From NCBI GenBank assembly GCA_951406725.2, contig OX597816.1:86738001-86802000 (forward strand): a DNA stretch of 64,000 bases. Direction: 5' to 3'. This DNA is from Octopus vulgaris. Taxonomy: Eukaryota. The position numbers were made by a program, and so were the translations under genes. Position 1 is the stretch's first letter; each line of letters opens with the position of its first letter. This document shows, piece after piece, positions 2,970-60,839 of this stretch. A model generated the notes under the pieces. It saw nothing but the letters and a program-made list of their open reading frames with translations, made no database searches and had not been told where the DNA came from.

Positions 2970-3268
<299 letters not shown>

Positions 3269-9113: not shown

Positions 9114-10759
9114 CACTGTAAAATACTCGAAAAATGACATTGTGATACTATTAAATCAAAACACGCATGACAGATTACTAAATATTTATAGTGGTTTGTG
9201 ACTTCCTTTGAACATCATTGATTGATTAGAAAGGCTTTTAAACATAACTCCGTAGAATTACCAAATGAATTTAAGAATGTCTAGAAAATTAGAAAAGACC
9301 GAAGTTGTTCTAAGCAATGGTAGTGAATTCAGCTTCAATTAAATCGGGTAAAATTTCTAATTTTAAATAGATACCTTCAAAAATCTCGAGACCAGCATTT
9401 TCATTTAATATGGCTAACTTACAGGGAACGCCTGCTACAAGTGGTGCCCATCGTTGTAACATATTTGCCGCTTATATTTAAGAGAACAAACAAATAATGC
9501 CATTGCCGGGTCCTTCAGTTATTCGAAACCCTGTAAAAGAACTCGACAGGTTGGGCTTCCTTTCACGATACCCTAAAAGCCATCAGGTTTTCAGCACAGC
9601 CCGTCTTATGTATGTGTGTGTCTGTCTGTCTGTTTGAGTGCGCACGCGTGTGTGTGCCTCTGTGTGTGTGGGTGTGTGTGTGTGCGTGTGTTTGTGTCTG
9701 TGTGTGTGTGTGTGCGTGTGTGCGTGTGGCTATGCTAATATACATTACATGTTATTGGAATTTGTATTAGTGAACATTTGTGTTAGTGAATAATGAATAG
9801 TTTTGGAAAAACATTGGCATGGTTGCAGTACATTTTGTGAGATATGAAAAATATTAGAAATTCCAAAGAGGCCACCAACTGCTGTACCTCCTCACTGTCC
9901 GTCTTTATTGCCAATAAATGAATGTAAGTACGCATGCAGTGTTTTGCTAATGGATTATTTTTCTATCAAAGTTGATATTTCTATCAAAGTTATCATTTAT
10001 AAACCTTCTTTCGATTTATATAATATAAAGCAATAGTGTTTTGTTCGGCTTCTCGTTAATACAGGAATTCCATATATATTTTAAATGATTTATATTTAAA
10101 ACTCTTCAGCTGTCATCAATAATTTTCAAAAATTTCAGCAGACATGTTAATATATACTTTTAGTTATACTGTCAAAATAGTTTCTTTTAATTTCTATCTC
10201 GATAACAAATAATTATTTGAATAAAAATTAATGCCATCAACTCCTGTTTAACACAACTTTAACGACTGTTATTAATCATAAGGTCTCGCAAGAATTTGTC
10301 ACATTCTAAACCAGCTGAAGAAATGAAAGCGTTGGAGGTTACCAGAAGGTATATGTTGACGCATATTCTCAATGCAAATATGTTGGCATTCATTGTTTTT
10401 GTATGTACATTTTATATGAATATTGGTCATATTCTCAACTAAATTCTAATTAGTTTTTCACAAAACACAGTGAATAGATGCTACTACTAAAGAATTACAG
10501 GTGTAACTTTTAAGCTGCAAGTGTAATTTGTTTGCAAAACTCACATAATGTTACATGCACATAAATATATAAAAATTGGAATGTTTGAATATAAATTTAT
10601 TTAGTTACGTCATATTAAACCTTTCGTTGTATAACGGATGTTGTTAATGAAATTCGTGTAACACAAAACAACTAAATACTTTATAAACAAAACCTACAGT
10701 TGGAAGTGAAAACTATAAATAATACGAGTGTCTTATTAACAATTTAACAACCAATTGGT

Positions 10760-11370
10760 AAATTTATAGACATCGCTAAAGTGAGTTGAGCTTAACCCTA
10801 GACGCGTTAAGAGCCACCAATGAGAATTAAGATGCTCTGAATAAAAATTTGAAATCACCGGTGATACGGTTATGCCTGCAACTGTAAAGAGCTTTGTCTC
10901 CTCTGTCAGTTTATTAAGATATTACTCTTGCCACTAAGAGTTGGTTTGCCTCTTATTTCTAGCAATGACAGTAACACTTTGTACCCTCTGTCATTTTAGT
11001 GACGTCTATAAATTTGGTTGTTAAATTGCTAAAAAGCCACCCATATTATTTATAGTTTTCGCTTCTAACGTTTTGGAAATCAGCACGTTTCAATGGATTT
11101 TCTTATAAGATGATGACGATAGTTGAGCTTAACCCTAGACGCGGTAAGAGCCAACGATGAAAATTAAGAGGCTCTGCATCAAACTTCGAAATCATCACCA
11201 GTGGTATGGCTGTGTCTACGACCGTAGGGAGCTTTGTCAGCTTATTAAGATGATGCTTTTGTGGCCAATGAGTTACCGATACGACTTTGTAACCTCTGTG
11301 ACTTTAGTGACATCTATAAATTTGCCTTTAAGTTGATGAATTGGTAATAAGCCACCCATGTTATTTATAT
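10760..11370. repeat. MITE-like family with diverged tandem duplication (~10785-11055 and ~11141-11370)
   Basis: AGTTGAGCTTAACCCTAGACGCG.TAAGAGCCA and CCTCTGT..TTTAGTGAC.TCTATAAATTTG each occur twice. AAATTTATAGACATCGCTAAAGTGA at 10761 is the inverted partner. Confidence 0.7.
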
Positions 11371-23565: not shown

Positions 23566-24108
23566 ATAGAAATATTAAAATTACTAAGTCTCTCTAAAAG
23601 AGAACAGCGGCAGCGTTCCCGGAAAATAATAGTTATCGCCATACTAATATGGCATTCTTATAAAAATAAGAATAAAGCTGTCCGCTTATTAGCTCCATGA
23701 GGCCATCGCCTTAAGTTAGCTATTTGATACACAAACTGTATCCATATAACCTTCGAACAAGGGAGGTCAGTCGCTCCACACTACCTGACCGGCAGCTACA
23801 GACACGTTTCGGGGTATTGCCCCTTTTCAATGCAGCGTAGCCAGCCAGTAGGTGTCGCTTCCGACAATCTCTGTTCGATGGTTTTATTTACCTAGTTTCG
23901 GTGGAATACATCCACTTGTTTTCAATAATAGAAATATTAAAATTACTAAGTCTCTCTAAAAGAGAACAGCGGCAGCGTTCCCGGAAAATAATAGTTATCG
24001 CCATACTAATATGGCATTCTTATAAAAATACGAATAAAGCTGTCCGCTTATTAGCTCCATTCTTATTTTTATAAGAATGCATATTAGTATGGCGATAACT
24101 ATTATTTT
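23566..24108 (-). mobile_element. (TA)n-flanked partial-tandem cassette (362-bp period) with short inverted tail; retrozyme/pLTR-like
   Basis: 133-bp direct repeat at 23566-23698 and 23928-24060 (1 mismatch). 24061-24108 is an inverted copy of part of it. Internal hammerhead. Confidence 0.75.
23795..23836 (-). ncRNA. Minimal hammerhead, U3-A8 variant
   Basis: GCTGCA TTGAAAA GGGG CAATA CCCC GAAA CGTG TC TGTAGC. 6-bp helix I, 4-bp helix II, GUC site. Confidence 0.75.
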
Positions 24109-24213
24109 CATATATATATATATATATAAACATAGTCAAAAGGCGATAAAATAAATTATTATCGCCGGTGATCTAGCACAAAAGACATTTTAGCCATAGG
24201 CTATATGTTATTC

Positions 24214-24785
<572 letters not shown>

Positions 24786-28407: not shown

Positions 28408-30373
<1,966 letters not shown>

Positions 30374-36857: not shown

Positions 36858-39800
36858 TTCGTAACACAGAGTAGGTAAAAATGCCTCGGGGTCTTTAGTC
36901 ATCAGTCAAGTCACAAGAAGGAAATCAGACAGATAATACTTTCCTTAAGACGAACGCTATGCCCAATAACGCAGCTTTTTGCAAGACATCAATCTTGCAT
37001 GTGATTTCCAGTTGCCTTAAAAAGTTTTCAAGTTTCAATGCGATTGAGACCAACGCTCCGATCGCCACTGGTATCACTTTTACATTACCCTCTTGCATTC
37101 CATACAGTCTTGTCATTTCCAGTTTTAATTTGGAGTACTTGGTGATTTTTTAAACCTCTTTACTCACAACATTCATGTCATTTGGTATGGCTCCATCAAT
37201 GATTTGACAGTATTCGTCTCTCTTATTCAATATGACATAATCGGCTGACGGTGTTCGATTACACGATCCGTCTGAAAATCATTGTCGCAGAGCATCATTA
37301 CTTTTCCATCCTCCTGCATAACTTTACGTGGTACATGCTCATACCATTTCTGTGTTACTTTATATTAATATTTACGGCATAAGAGCCAATGAAGATATAC
37401 ACACACACTTTATGGTGGTAGCGCTTGCTTGTACTCTTTTTGTGCAAGGCTCTCACATCCACTTACCATGTGAGTCGCACTTTCCACACTCTTTCCACAG
37501 TCTGCATTTTTGGGTGTCAGAAGATTTAAACATGTTATACTTCACTGAATTGGTAGCGAGAGCCTGGTCTTCAGCAGCAATGATCAAGCTTTCGGTGGTA
37601 CGCTTCAAATCACATCGCTCAAGCTATGCTCACGGTACTGTATTATCCTTAACGTTTTGTGTATTCCTTTGAAACTATCCATGCATTCTCATTTCAAGAA
37701 GGTCTTCTTTTCTCTTCGCCTCAGCTCTTTGGTTAAACTTTTCGTTGCACATCATTTCATCTGCATTTATACCCCTATCTATCGCGGCAGGTCTTCATCA
37801 GTATTTATCAAATACTCGGTAAGCGTTCTTCTTTCACTCCTTATACAATGTTCTATACTAATTAGTCCCCTGCCACCATTCTGTCTTTTCATATATAGTC
37901 TGTTTATGTTTGCTTTGGGGTGTAGCGCCCCATGCAGCGTTCTCAACTTTCTCGTTCTTCTATCGAATGTTGATATTTCCTCTTTTGTCCATTTGAGTAT
38001 GTACCTACTATATCTGACTACTGCAAATACCTAGCTATTCTTTGTGGTAATCAAATTTTCTGCATTCAGGTTGGATTTCAACACTATCTTCACCCTTTCT
38101 TGATAAGCCTCGCTGACATTGACTTTCATTTCTCTGTATAGAATGCCCTCCAGCTCCAAAATCCCTAAATATCTAGGCCCACTACCGTCGGATTCACCCA
38201 TGGTCTCTCCTAATGTTAACCGTAATCCTCTGTAGGATACTTTATTCCCTCTTTTCATATTAAGTACTGAGCATTTGGTAATCCCAAATTCCATGCCGAT
38301 GTCCCTCCCACACTTCTGGGCTGTTTTGGTTAAGGAATCTATCTGTTTTTCAGATTTCCCAAACAATTTCAGGTCATCCATAAACAGAAGACGGTTCAAT
38401 GATGGGCTTTTCTTTCCACATCGGCAACCCATCTTAACTTTCCTAAATGTCATTTTTATGGGTATTACTGCAAATACAAAAAGTAACTGAGAAAACGAGT
38501 CACCTTAGAAGATTTCCCTTTTAATATTAACTTCTCCAAGGAATACATTACTTGAGTACAATTTGGTTTTCCACTCTTTCATGCTATGCATCAGAAAATT
38601 GGTGGTGTTGTCAGCAACACCAATCATCTGCGGGCATTCAACGATGCAAGAATGAGGCACCATATCACATGCCTTCTTAAAGTCATGTTGGTATGATGCT
38701 TTTTACAATGCCTCAAATCTGTTTTTTCGATGATCAAGAACTCTTACTACATCCTTTTTGTTCCCTTGGTAGTATTTTTTACTGTGCCATGAAAGAATAT
38801 GACTTTGCCGCACTTCTTCCATTGTCTTCCAGATTATGTTTAGGCATGTTATGGGGCGGTAGTTTCCTACAATATTCCCCTTTTTTCTATCTTTCATTAC
38901 AAGTATAGTCCTCCTAGTCACCCTCAACGCGGGGACACACTCATTCAATTAGGCTGCTAGTCCTTCATACACCACGTGGCATCTCTTGAGCCAGAAGCCA
39001 TGAATATCATCTGGTCTGGGTGCTTTCCAGTTAAGCACTTTACCCACTTGTTCTTTCACATCACCCGTGTTTATGACAATATTCTTTTGTTTCTTTTCTC
39101 CTCGTAATTCTCTGTTGATAGTTCCTATCCACATTGCATCCCCTTTATGCACCTCATTGTTTCCCCATAATCCGCTCCAGAACTCCTTGGATTTAACTGC
39201 ATCAGGGTCAACATTTTCCCTATTGTCTCCTCCTAACGTTTGGAAGAATTGCTTCTTGTTATTTTTGAACAATCTGCTCTCCTCGAACTCCTTTTTCTTT
39301 TCACAAATTTGATCTTCTGGCTTTTTGCCATGGTCCTCTGTTTTAACTGCTCTATTACTGCATCACACCCGTTCTTTCATATTTTATATTTCTTTTCTTC
39401 TCTAATATTTCTCGGTCGGTCTTTTTCCCATTTTCCCAGTATCCTCTTACCATTGCTCAATTTTTCCTAGATCTTGCCTTGCCCCCATTATGTCCCTTTC
39501 AATGCGTCGTGTCCACCATGGTTCGTTTGCTCCACCATATTTTGTTCTCTTAAGTTGTAACTTCTCTTCAACAAGTAGCGCAATACTCGGAGAAGATTTC
39601 TTGTTTGTCTTATGTCTTGGATGTATGGTATGACAGTATTATTCTTTTGCGCTACTTTATTTATCATATTCCTATCTACCCTTTTCGTATTCATGGGGAT
39701 TTTTCCTTCTGGATCATTCATCAAGTCGGTGAGTCATCTTTGAATTTCAAGCAACTCATTATCTAGTTGATTCATTCCCCTGCATTTCCGCCCACTACAG

Positions 39801-44745: not shown

Positions 44746-45510
44746 CAGGGTATGTAAGGTATTTGGGGACATACCTTTTTTAGGTCATTATTGCATTTTT
44801 GCAAACTCTGTATAATCATTGTTTCAGAAAATAATAATGGCAGACACTCAGCTTGCTCTAGAAATGAAGAGGCATGCAGTTATTGTAGTTTTAAAGGCTG
44901 AGCATAGCGATTTAGAATTATCTCGATTTCTAAAAGTTGCCAGATCTTTCGTCTACAAAATTTGTAAGGAGCTAGAGACTGAAGATGGAAACGTATCACC
45001 AGTATTAAAGCATAAAAAGCATTCTAAACGCTCTGAAATTATCAGAAACTTTGAATTTATCCAGCAAGTTAAACAGACCATTCATTACAACCCCAAAAAG
45101 TATAAGAAGGAACACTAAGAAATGTTGTCCACGAAGACATCAGATATAAATCTTATATGATGGGGAAAGGCCAGTTTGTCAGGAAAGGCAAAAGAATATC
45201 ATTACATCAGATCTAAAAGGCTCTTAAAGAACTGAAGAAACTGAAAACTCCAGCAGATTTGATTTGGTTTTACTCAAATGAGAAAAACTTCGACCAAGAT
45301 CAAAATTTAACAGAAGAAATGACAGATGGTGATGTGCAGATCCTTCTGAAGTTCCAAATGTTATGCATACAAAATTTCCTGAAACTGTTATGGTTGTCAG
45401 CAATGAAGGACATGTGATGCCTCCTTACTTCTTTCCACAATGCCTTAGAGTTAACTCTGTCGCCTACGTTGTGGTCCTGGAAATAACTGTTAAGCCCTGG
45501 ATAGATATAT
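44746..45510 (+). mobile_element. 3'-truncated IS630-Tc1-mariner transposon, DD37D/maT-like
   Basis: TA+CAGGG start. ATG 44837 MADTQLALEMKRHAVIV...ELSRFLKVARSFVYK; WFYSNEKNFDQDQ; HTKFPETVMVVSNEGHVMPPYFFPQCLRVNSVAYVVVLEITVKPWI. Confidence 0.8.
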
Positions 45511-45822
45511 GTAACTATTCCTTGAGATCAAGAAACTCTGAGTGAAGACGTAAGCCAAAGTGTTTTAAAAATATATGACACTAATACACACACACTCACA
45601 CATGCACACACGCACACGCAAACACACACACATACACACAGCTGTGCACATGCATACACGCGTGCACATGTTGACATACATAAATTATACACATATCGTT
45701 ATGTGTATTATACACATGCGTGTGCGTGTGTGTGTGAGTGTGTGTGTATTAGTTTCATATATTTTTAAAACACTTTGGCTTACGTCTTCACTCAGAGTTT
45801 CTCGATCTCAATCAATAGTTAC
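45511..45822. repeat. ~105-bp inverted repeat with (CA)n/(TG)n inner ends
   Basis: GTAACTATT..TTGAGATCAAGAAACTCTGAGTGAAGACGTAAGCCAAAGTGTTTTAAAAATATATGA.ACTAATACAC and its reverse complement ending at 45822. Confidence 0.92.
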
Positions 45823-45989
45823 ACGAAGAAAGGGAACGAGAAACACGAATTAGCGGAGCTCACAGTGACTTAGCTTTAAATGACTATTATTATTCCACGC
45901 AACTTAACAGTATTGACTACATATTTTGCTTAATTACATTTCACACTTGTGTGAAACTACCCTACCAATATATAATACACATACACACA

Positions 45990-46844: not shown

Positions 46845-47045
46845 TCTTGGTAGAATTTCGAACCCAACCCTGGGTTCTCATTCCTAAGGTATTTTGTGAC
46901 TCACGTGGTAAAAATTCTGGAGAGAAATACGAATTCACTTGTCTATATAAATGTGGATATGCTGATTAGCTTTTATATGTTCCGATGACGCTTGGTAGGA
47001 AATATAGGAGGTAAGTTTTCCTAGCATTTCTAGATTTATCGGAAT

Positions 47046-47104
47046 ATTATGTTGATAAAGGAAATGAGTCTTATGATTCTAATCCAGAAACGTACGTCCA
47101 TAAT
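47046..47104 (+). ncRNA. Minimal hammerhead, U3-A8 variant
   Basis: ATTATG TTGATAA A GGA AAT GAGTC TTAT GATTC TAA TCC A GAAA CGTACG TC CATAAT. Perfect 6-bp helix I, palindrome ACGTACGT, GUC site. Confidence 0.78.
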
Positions 47105-47745
47105 TAACCGAAGACTGTTTCATTTCATTATTTTTCTTCTTTTCTTGCCATATGTGAGTTACAAATAGTATTGTCTGTGAAGACATATTTTTGTAGAAAA
47201 AGGAAACAGTAGTCCTTTGGCTGCTATTTCTAAAATTTTCAATATGTGGTCAAGCAACTTGTTGCAAAAACCCTTATTGTTATAATTATATAAGCTTTTA
47301 CTGTATGTGGTCCTTTTCCATACCGAAATACTACTAGGTGAAATTTGTTGATTTTATTAAATTAATTATATATATATATACACCCCAAAACTTTCTCTTG
47401 AATAAATATATTTATATGTGCATAAAGAGATTTACATATACAAATACATATAGATATGTGTGTGTGTCTGTGTGTGTGTGTGTCTGTGTTTAAGCGTACA
47501 CGCCAAATATTTAATACAAGTAAATAATATGTTCCAGCGAGCTTAATTGCAACGATCACATTTCAATAATCATATATCTTTGCTTGGTGGAAATTCATTA
47601 GGGAACGCATCACTAATATACCCATATGCATAAAAATGCATATATGAACCATATATATATATATGTGTGTGTGTATGTGTGTGTGTGTATGTGTGTGTGT
47701 GTATGTGTATGTGTGTGTGCGTGTGTGTGTGTGTATGTATGTATG

Positions 47746-47791
<46 letters not shown>

Positions 47792-48074
47792 CAACAATTG
47801 AGGGTAAAATTAATTAATTATTAATCAATTTCACCAAGTATTCAGTATGTAAAGGGACCATTTAAGGCGAATTCAAATTATTACATTATATAAAAGGGCT
47901 TAGTAAAATAAATTACTTTGCCACATACTGAACTCATTAGAAATAGCAGCTAAAAAAACTTTTTTAAAACTATTTCTAATACTTAAAGAAAATCTCTCTC
48001 ATATAGTGTTTGCTCAATTCAACTCACGAAAGTATGGGGGTAAAGACATTAAAAAATCAAATGCTAAGGTTATT

Positions 48075-48126
48075 TGAGAACGTACGTTTCAAGATTAGTC
48101 AACTCGACATTTCTATCATCAGCTCA
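48075..48126 (-). ncRNA. Minimal hammerhead with intact core (left arm)
   Basis: Reverse complement of 48913-48964. Confidence 0.8.
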
Positions 48127-48912
48127 GAACTCCTTGGTTTGGATTTGAAAACACTGAAAGTGGGAGCATACCCTTTCGGCTTCTTATCGCTTCTGAAGAT
48201 CTGCTCGAAACTAACAGTGCCAGCAAACCCAAAATATGCAAGCGAAGAATTTCTGCTCTCCTTTCGACCAGCGTGGGCTAAAATCAGTAAACACTATGCT
48301 TTTTCGGTAAAATCCGAAGCATTAAATAGAGAGAGATGAATTATAATTTCAACAATTGAGGGTAAAATTAATTAATTATTAATCAATTTCACCAAGTATT
48401 CAGTATGTAAAGGGACCATTTAAGGCGAATTCAAATTATTACATTATATAAAAGGGCTTAGTAAAATAAATTACTTTGCCACATACTGAACTCATTAGAA
48501 ATAGCAGCTAAAAAAAAAAGTTTTTTTAGCTGCTATTTCTAATGAGTTCAGTATGTGGCAAAGTAATTTATTTTACTAAGCCCTTTTATATAATGTAATA
48601 ATTTGAATTCGCCTTAAATGGTCCCTTTACATACTGAATACTTGGTGAAATTGATTAATAATTAATTAATTTTACCCTCAATTGTTGAAATTATAATTCA
48701 TCTCTCTCTATTTAATGCTTCGGATTTTACCGAAAAAGCATAGTGTTTACTGATTTTAGCCCACGCTGGTGGAAAGGGGAGAGCAGAAATTCTTCGCTTG
48801 CATATTTTGGGTTTGCTGGCACTGTTAGTTTCGAGCAGATCTTCAGAAGCGATAAGAAGCCGAAAGGGTATGCTCCCACTTTCAGTGTTTTCAAATCCAA
48901 ACCAAGGAGTTC

Positions 48913-48964
48913 TGAGCTGATGATAGAAATGTCGAGTTGACTAATCTTGAAACGTACGTTCTCA
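48913..48964 (+). ncRNA. Minimal hammerhead with intact core (right arm)
   Basis: TGAG CTGATGA T AGA AAT GTCG AGT TGAC TAA TCT T GAAA CGTACG TT CTCA. 10-bp palindrome AACGTACGTT, GUU site. Confidence 0.8.
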
Positions 48965-49155
48965 AATAACCTTTGCATTTGATTTTTTAATGTCTTTACC
49001 CCCATACTTTCGTGAGTTGAATTGAGCAAACACTATATGAGAGAGATTTTCTTTAAGTATTAGAAATAGTTTTTAAAAAGTTTTTTTAGCTGCTATTTCT
49101 AATGAGTTCAGTATGTGGCAAAGTAATTTATTTTACTAAGCCCTTTTATATAATG

Positions 49156-49196
<41 letters not shown>

Positions 49197-49246
49197 ATGT
49201 ATATATGTATGCATGTATGTATATATGTATGCGTATATGTATGTAT

Positions 49247-49247
49247 T

Positions 49248-49330
<83 letters not shown>
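49247..49330 (+). repeat. (GATA)n microsatellite
   Basis: Direct reading. Confidence 0.97.
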
Positions 49331-60265: not shown

Positions 60266-60468
60266 TACATATATAGGTATTTATATATGTGTATGTATAT
60301 GTATATATATGTACATATATATGTATGTATGGATATATATATATATATATGAATAATTTACAAAATAAGAGCAAAAACAATATTCTAATGCTAAATATGC
60401 CGATAAAAAGACAAAATTGTCAATAACGTCTCGAAACAAACCGATAGAAATTTCTTAAAAATCTGTTA

Positions 60469-60529
60469 TTACCGTATTGGTCCCAATTTCGGGGTTAATT
60501 CATAAAAATGTTCCCCTCTTCAGCGATAA
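60469..60529 (-). ncRNA. Type I hammerhead with intact core (left arm)
   Basis: TTATCG CTGAAGA GGGG AACATTTTTATGAATTAA CCCC GAAA TTGG GA CCAA TA CGGTAA. Confidence 0.87.
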
Positions 60530-60561
60530 ATACGTGAGATATAAGTGAAATACTTACGTAT

Positions 60562-60622
60562 TTATCGCTGAAGAGGGGAAAATTCTTATGAATTAACCCC
60601 GAAATTGGGACCAATACGGTAA
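60562..60622 (+). ncRNA. Type I hammerhead with intact core (right arm)
   Basis: TTATCG CTGAAGA GGGG AAA ATTC TTAT GAAT TAA CCCC GAAA TTGG GA CCAA TA CGGTAA. AUA site. Confidence 0.9.
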
Positions 60623-60839
60623 TAACAGATTTTAAAGAAATTTCTATCGGATTGTTTCGAGACGCATAAATTATAATGGTTATTGACAATTTTGTCGTTT
60701 TATCGGCATATTTGGCATTAGAATGTTGCTTTTGCCCTTATTTTGTAAATTATTTATAAATTTAACCTTTAAAGGTATTTTTTGATATGCTGGCCATTGA
60801 TAAAAATTTTTTCACGAAAAAAATTTTATCCTACATTAG

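Follow-up and report, generated by a model that had tools for sequence, protein, structure and literature searches.

The window (the whole 64-kb stretch of DNA that was analysed) carries at 47784-49157 a palindromic cassette built from a 558-nt unit, which is repeated in part within the left arm and present again, inverted, in the right arm, with one hammerhead motif on each strand. The features of the cassette and its surroundings are:

46902-47370, plus strand: older diverged relative of the unit, a separate insertion 0.4 kb upstream of the cassette, with its hammerhead at 47046-47104
47654-47787, no strand: left compound microsatellite TG/TATG/TA, whose last 4 nt (TATA) are common to the element end
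47784-48516, sense (hammerhead) strand minus: left arm, 733 nt or 1.31 units, A-B-A, 3' end at 47784
47784-47958, minus strand: distal copy of segment A, 175 nt, 100% identical to 48342-48516 at a period of 558
47784-47881, minus strand: one-sided tail-like extension, 98 nt, without a mirror in the right arm
47936-47980, no strand: imperfect hairpin of the unit itself, with 11-bp and 6-bp stems; the inversion junction is the equivalent site
47959-48341, minus strand: segment B of the left arm, 383 nt, non-coding, containing the hammerhead
48075-48126, minus strand: type I hammerhead of the left arm, C3 at 48122, GAAA at 48090, predicted cut after 48079 (GUU), palindromic stem/loop III
48342-48516, minus strand: proximal copy of segment A, the 5'-truncated end of the left arm
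48517-48520, plus strand: spacer AAAG, 4 nt, templated by the right arm's own sense sequence
48521-49157, sense strand plus: right inverted arm, 637 nt or 1.14 units, A'-B'-77 nt of A', 3' end at 49157
48913-48964, plus strand: type I hammerhead of the right arm, C3 at 48917, GAAA at 48949, predicted cut after 48960 (GUU)
49059-49103, no strand: intact copy of the unit hairpin in the right arm
49156-49330, no strand: right compound microsatellite TA/TG/TATG then GATA, with 2 nt (TA) common to the element end

The hammerhead strand defines the polarity of the cassette, which is head-to-head with the 3' ends pointing outward. The original prediction had described an A-B-A layout with a 558-bp period, followed by a near-perfect inversion with arms of about 635 bp and hardly any spacer, the whole set inside (TA)n, and our analysis bore this out. 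The inverted arms are 47882-48516 (635 nt), which mirrors 48521-49157 (637 nt), and they are about 99% alike. Both ends of the cassette lie within (TA)n inside compound TA/TG microsatellites, with microhomology of 4 nt on the left and 2 nt on the right; no target-site duplication was readable within these flanks. The few arm differences that had been noticed, a 2-bp indel among them, were three substitutions (47965/49074, 48065/48974 and 48266/48771) and one 2-nt indel next to 48266/48771, the substitution at 48065/48974 being the pair first reported as ATGCTAAGG/ATGCAAAGG. All four fall within B, and the 250 nt adjoining the cassette centre are identical between the arms. Two features had gone unremarked in the original prediction, namely the unmirrored 98-nt extension on the left and the position of the junction inside a hairpin that the unit already possesses.

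Both cassette hammerheads hold every invariant core letter, with a U-U pair at the base of stem II in place of G-C and GUU as the cleavage triplet. A GUU triplet may slow a hammerhead ribozyme. The proximal stem I has 4 bp, and stem III has 2 bp with 8 self-complementary nt, a palindromic arrangement that would be suited to dimer cleavage. The intact-core hammerheads had been placed at 48075 (minus) and 48913 (plus); the invariant letters were confirmed on each strand, whereas these two positions turned out to be the low ends of stem I, the cores starting at 48122 and 48917. Across the 64-kb window a strict type I descriptor gave 4 matches, whereas 100 dinucleotide shuffles averaged 0.06; of 3000 shuffled versions of the 558-nt unit, the type I descriptor matched 2. 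In Rfam, no hammerhead match reached the gathering score, nor was there one among the 34 weak matches at E<=10. These weak matches, mostly miRNA models on the palindrome or on microsatellites, were set aside as uninformative, and a miRNA-precursor reading was discarded. Folded without constraints, the 91-nt hammerhead regions did no better than shuffles (z 0.31 and 1.07), so that the hammerhead call rests on the core letters, the stems and covariation. For covariation, 4 of 10 modelled pairs had changed on both sides between the unit and its older relative (two independent sequences only), and the compensatory changes included that of C3-G8 to U3-A8 in the core of the relative. This relative, whose hammerhead has the U3-A8 core variant and a GUC triplet, aligned locally to the unit with a score of 220, the best of 100 shuffles reaching 97. 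Furthermore, of the 40 variants listed of 62 in the family, a single one touched the 15 positions of the core and stem III, and it lay at N7, a free position. The junction, the right end and the left end of the cassette lie 121, 197 and 295 nt downstream of the predicted cut, and none of them coincides with it.

The unit is non-coding and strongly self-paired: the 558-nt monomer has a G+C content of 33% and folds with z -5.2 as a linear and -4.9 as a circular molecule. Pfam gave no match for the 8 frames overlapping the unit (116 frames scanned). A 110-codon frame runs antisense to the hammerhead in the left arm (48007-48339, plus) and is disrupted by the indel in the right arm; its length exceeds that in 995 of 1000 shuffles and was reached by 5 of 1000. 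The 110-aa frame had no true relative among 1.84 billion proteins, the sole match being an artefact in which a 64-aa repeat was scored 70 times, with a best single alignment of E 0.32. For a 74-aa sense frame, a weak test found relatives among longer proteins in 0 of 12 candidates. No reverse transcriptase (RT) or GIY-YIG ORF of a Penelope-like element (PLE) was linked to the unit or found in the cassette or the 64-kb window, and exact 23- and 21-base unit patterns occurred at 0 loci in metagenome and viral contigs.

To describe the family of the unit, four sequencing runs from four studies, one of which may be the source of the present sequence, were compared on a single unit (47850-48407). 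The runs held 11,166, 4,698, 3,192 and 229 family contigs, which is not a copy number; most were 90-99% alike to the cassette unit, and 30 of 30 bins were covered in each run. The expectation that the unit would have other genomic copies was thereby borne out, and the unit family is large and diverse. The share of family contigs that continued into unlike sequence was 0 to 0.01. In a wider run search the unit was present in 20 of the 24 matches listed, 18 of them with half the words or more, from 7 studies and under 3 organism labels; no RNA run held the unit among these 24 matches listed. The four runs compared above belong to these 20; one of them may be an RNA run, and it was left out of account for expression. 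Loose ends in (TA)n were seen before 47879 (4 contigs, one run) and before 48349 (2 contigs, another run) among the 24 listed of 353, at 3 and about 7 nt from the equivalents of the two 3' ends of the cassette. An opposite-strand joint of the unit family was present at 48100/48196 in runs of two studies. The cassette's own junction (unit equivalent 47958/47962) was not among the 4 joints listed, and contigs of this kind show presence, not absence. Among the 32 pieces listed of 19,491, 4 bridged A to B with at least 31 letters on each side, and none did so from B to A; the 557/558 joint falls within A and by itself is no proof of tandem arrays elsewhere. Long tandem arrays of the unit elsewhere in the genome are likely; run contigs of about 80-120 nt are too short to reveal them. 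The cassette, with its 1.31 and 1.14 units and one hammerhead per strand, contains no two-hammerhead head-to-tail array, and the equal period in both arms (558/560) would imply a periodic template. The alleles of the arm differences at 47965, 48065 and 48266 were absent among the 40 variants listed of 62, with 1-2 T>A places per run that could not be assigned. Contig depth fell sharply at 48262, within the left-arm indel site (48256-48266), in 4 of 4 runs, and the listed pieces were clipped there.

The layout of the cassette is commonplace in this 64-kb window, where we found five other palindromic cassettes, some of them with clearly diverged arms, and where three of the three hammerhead-bearing palindromes are head-to-head with TA ends. 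For example, an unrelated cassette at 23566-24109 consists of an A-B-A tandem (period 362, 1 difference in 133 nt) and a 57-nt inverted arm. Both of its ends are (TA)n, it has a U3-A8 type I hammerhead on the minus strand at 23830, and its circular monomer folds with z -7.3; the inverted arm, which begins at a hairpin of its unit, agrees in its allele with the distal A copy and not with the adjacent one. At 24221-24510, perfect 122-bp head-to-head arms surround a central hammerhead 3' half, with TA repeats outside, and this is likely a heavily truncated PLE-type insertion. The palindromic cassettes at 2972-3134, 45510-45823 and 60352-60754 have diverged arms, and two of them adjoin TA or ATAG repeats; the hammerhead descriptor gave no match in the three, which could represent PLE remnants or else MITEs. 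At 10699-11369 lie direct and inverted repeats that have diverged (70-80% alike), possibly an old tandem-plus-inverted insertion. The window also contains a Mariner-type HTH_48 remnant at 29905-30177 (minus; E 1.8e-9) and a broken RVT_1 retroelement remnant at 38034-39362 (minus; E 6.5e-5), LINE-like by eye.

The inversion junction of the cassette reads A10-G-T7 on the plus strand and sits at the hairpin that the unit already has. When the possible ways of producing it were enumerated, fold-back of the left cDNA gave 0 solutions and fold-back of the right (minus-strand) cDNA gave 2-3 solutions, with a CTTT loop and 1-3 bp; two separate cDNAs were joinable with a 2-3-nt overlap. Since only the right cDNA can fold back, yet the left arm is the longer by 98 nt, priming on both target strands is likely. 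The original prediction had proposed more than one round of reverse transcription followed by fold-back strand switching. The 1.31 and 1.14 units found in the arms, each more than a full unit, agree with an origin by reverse transcription. The strand switching stands in part: the junction can be templated by the right cDNA but not by the left one, and the 98 nt by which the left arm is longer and the three differing places do not fit it. Judging from the sequence, fold-back would need an added second priming event or a later deletion.

Our results indicate that the insertion is real, that it is probably recent, and that it is a retrozyme-type repeat with a PLE insertion signature. We consider it probable that the cassette represents one insertion event of an abundant hammerhead-bearing non-LTR retrozyme of 558 nt, likely written into (TA)n by the RT and endonuclease of a PLE acting in trans; no PLE ORF is linked to the unit or lies in the window, and the mobilising enzyme is therefore one that we infer. 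In this process both target strands would be nicked and each would prime one cDNA. Relative to the hammerhead cut, the two start sites of the family at which the cDNAs would begin lie 295 and 197 nt downstream, and this would leave the 98-nt one-sided tail. Because each cDNA runs through the cut site and is longer than one unit, the template would be tandem RNA that had stayed uncleaved or a circle closed by ligation. The halves would be joined at the hairpin by 2-3-nt A:T annealing of both cDNA ends; alternatively, the right cDNA may fold back with its CTTT loop and its product pair with the left cDNA. In the last step, host repair would fill in the remainder. As the arms are 99% alike, compared with 90-99% for most family contigs, both arms would come from one source locus or RNA, and this likeness, well above that of random family members, speaks in favour of a pure fold-back. 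A more specific version, that retrozyme RNAs are integrated by a dimeric PLE enzyme which primes both strands, copies more than one turn of a circular template and leaves the cDNAs to be joined at the built-in hairpin, is offered only tentatively, as a possibility that we lean against. With one hammerhead per strand, the cassette copy could not release a monomer circle and is likely a dead end. Read-through RNA is predicted to form a long duplex (635 bp), in line with the dsRNA hairpin of the original prediction, and the duplex would bury the hammerheads.

It counts against two independent cDNAs that both arms pass the hairpin once and end at its second pass, for which a pure fold-back would be simpler. 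With the same element and enzyme, the right-arm cDNA would then have turned back at the hairpin and served as its own template; the arms would at first have been identical, the 98-nt asymmetry would stem from staggered resolution or from a later deletion into TA, and the differences would be later mutations or RT errors. A fold-back of the right cDNA with a 4-nt loop would yield exactly this junction, the two arms stop at one and the same pass of the hairpin, the central 250 nt are identical in both arms, and self-priming at palindromes is a published proposal (PMC3846280, Discussion). We nevertheless regard this origin as unlikely, as the additional 98 nt have no template in the right cDNA in its present form, and joins to (TA)n corresponding to both 3' ends are seen in other contigs. 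The clustering of the arm differences points the same way, with 3 events in B versus none in about 600 nt of A copies, but is not significant (P 0.10-0.17).

It was also considered whether the unit is the pseudo-LTR of an autonomous PLE, so that the cassette would be a pair of heavily 5'-truncated copies and no stand-alone retrozyme. Opposite-strand hammerhead pairs 100-700 bp apart have been ascribed to truncated PLEs (PMC4209133), the B-to-A boundary was bridged by none of the pieces listed, and the 110-aa antisense frame is longer than in nearly all shuffles (see above). However, the period is 558/560 in both arms with no ORF between the A copies, hardly any family contigs (0 to 0.01) continue into unlike sequence, and the cassette hammerhead has the canonical form of retrozymes instead of the minimal form of PLEs. 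The failure to find a protein relative for the 110-aa frame, or among longer proteins for the 74-aa sense frame (the latter weak), also speaks against a truncated PLE, and we judge this reading quite improbable.

A fold-back chimera formed at the natural hairpin in the library or the assembly would account for a junction that lies at a hairpin with a minimal loop and that was not seen in its exact form among the joints listed from four runs. Yet the right flank keeps the TG polarity of the left and does not mirror it (mirror score 40 versus direct score 109), which argues against a read fold-back, since that would be expected to mirror the flank. Furthermore, the end points of the arms are not the same, 3 substitutions and an indel separate the two arms, the window holds five other palindromic cassettes, some with clearly diverged arms, and an inverted joint of the unit family is present in two studies. 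That the locus is no simple read artefact, as the original prediction had argued, is in agreement with the unmirrored flanks, and a chimera seems to us very improbable. Least probable of all, with hardly any chance of being correct, is a DNA-level origin in which template switching at a replication fork, or the repair of a break, inverted a copy of a tandem satellite at the hairpin without RNA taking part in the inversion, because, even though the 2-3-nt microhomology at the hairpin fits template switching and satellite-type expansion is discussed for retrozymes (bioRxiv 10.64898/2026.07.22.740005), such an inversion should copy the flank too, while both ends stop at (TA)n on the 3' side of the element, and all 3 palindromes of the window that bear a hammerhead share the head-to-head polarity and the TA ends.

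The shape of PLE insertions is already known, and a cassette copy such as this one is unsurprising by itself; its value lies in being a clean test case. The link between retrozymes and PLEs has so far consisted of homology and co-occurrence (bioRxiv 10.64898/2026.07.22.740005), and the way in which PLE inverted structures form is still treated as unsettled (PMC8557442; PMC3846280). With a non-coding unit that bears the PLE signature, has a junction that can be read and two start sites, and differs between its arms, a genome census could put both questions to the test. If two-ended priming of retrozymes by PLEs is true, the family would give thousands of natural junctions at which self-priming and two-ended priming can be compared, and direct insertion-signature evidence that PLEs mobilise animal retrozymes. 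The 635-bp read-through duplex might also be a trigger of silencing of the family.

No description of inverted retrozyme insertions or of two-ended PLE priming was found in the mostly open-access literature, main texts without supplements, and supplements may contain the family or copies of this kind. In the two main texts on retrozymes, inverted copies are absent: the word 'inverted' occurs 0 times in PMC7229834 and once, in a reference title only, in bioRxiv 10.64898/2026.07.22.740005. In its richness in microsatellites and in A+T, the window resembles octopus genomes. For Octopus vulgaris, the available text of a repeat survey gives 31 PLE families as recently active and is silent on hammerheads (PMC13282606). 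The features of animal non-LTR retrozymes were described by Cervera and de la Pena (2020; PMC7229834), and retrozymes were later argued to be non-autonomous PLE derivatives that arose from PLE pLTRs (Li, Clavereau and Pollet, 2026; bioRxiv 10.64898/2026.07.22.740005). By sequence, the cassette unit has the tested features of a non-LTR retrozyme: like retrozymes, it is non-coding, low in G+C (33%, the retrozyme limit being below 45-50%) and strongly self-paired, with one canonical type I hammerhead, a tandem period and a large heterogeneous family. Its length of 558 nt is above the 150-450 bp of PMC7229834 and inside the 51-972 bp of bioRxiv 10.64898/2026.07.22.740005. The axolotl HHR_Amex2 resembles the cassette hammerhead in its 2-bp helix III with a tetraloop and its U-U at the base of helix II (PMC7229834). 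Unlike retrozymes, the cassette has a GUU triplet, and a circular RNA of its unit is putative. With one hammerhead per strand, the cassette copy also falls outside the retrozymes classed as 'active' in the preprint, in which 8 of 9 Xenopus retrozyme dimers were without cleavage (bioRxiv 10.64898/2026.07.22.740005).

Other systems were also compared with the cassette. A MITE or foldback DNA transposon was rejected, the ends being asymmetric by 98 nt and an internal tandem period and a hammerhead being present. In L1 twin priming, two target nicks each prime a cDNA and microhomology joins them into an inversion whose two parts come from different stretches of one RNA; in the cassette, by contrast, the same sequence is present in the two arms, which together make up a palindrome. 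In Schistosoma, dual minimal hammerheads on opposite strands and a U3-A8 variant were described (Cervera and de la Pena, 2014; PMC4209133). The cassette is similar in that its hammerheads lie on opposite strands a few hundred bases apart and in that its older relative has the U3-A8 variant; it differs in the spacing of 795 nt, in a canonical motif with a palindromic loop III instead of a minimal one, and in the tandem unit.

The closest resemblance in insertion shape, which the original prediction had not recognised, is described for PLEs: their insertions include a partial tandem, a 5'-truncated copy in inverted orientation and, at one end, a tail of 30-40 bp, and some clades prefer (TA)n (Craig et al., 2021; PMC8557442). 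In Adineta vaga, Penelope elements show head-to-head inversions with palindromes at the junction, which were read as self-priming (PMC3846280). The anole PLE protein cleaves and extends both strands, is a predicted dimer and uses two start sites that give the tail, and reverse transcription by PAc begins without target homology (Frangieh et al., 2024; PMC11167929). The cassette has microhomology of 2-4 nt to the target at its ends, compared with none needed for PAc, and a tail of 98 nt compared with 30-40 nt in published PLEs. It has no RT or GIY-YIG ORF, and both arms exceed one 558-nt unit, in which it is unlike EN+ PLEs; lacking a single ORF with a telomerase-like RT and GIY-YIG, it is not classed as an autonomous EN+ PLE. 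The 98-nt one-sided extension, both of whose candidate start sites have TA-joined counterparts (4 and 2 contigs), may correspond to the PLE tail. The partial tandem, the adjacent head-to-head inverted 5'-truncated copy, the junction palindrome, the AT-rich or (TA)n target and the hammerhead are all features that the cassette shares with EN+ PLEs.
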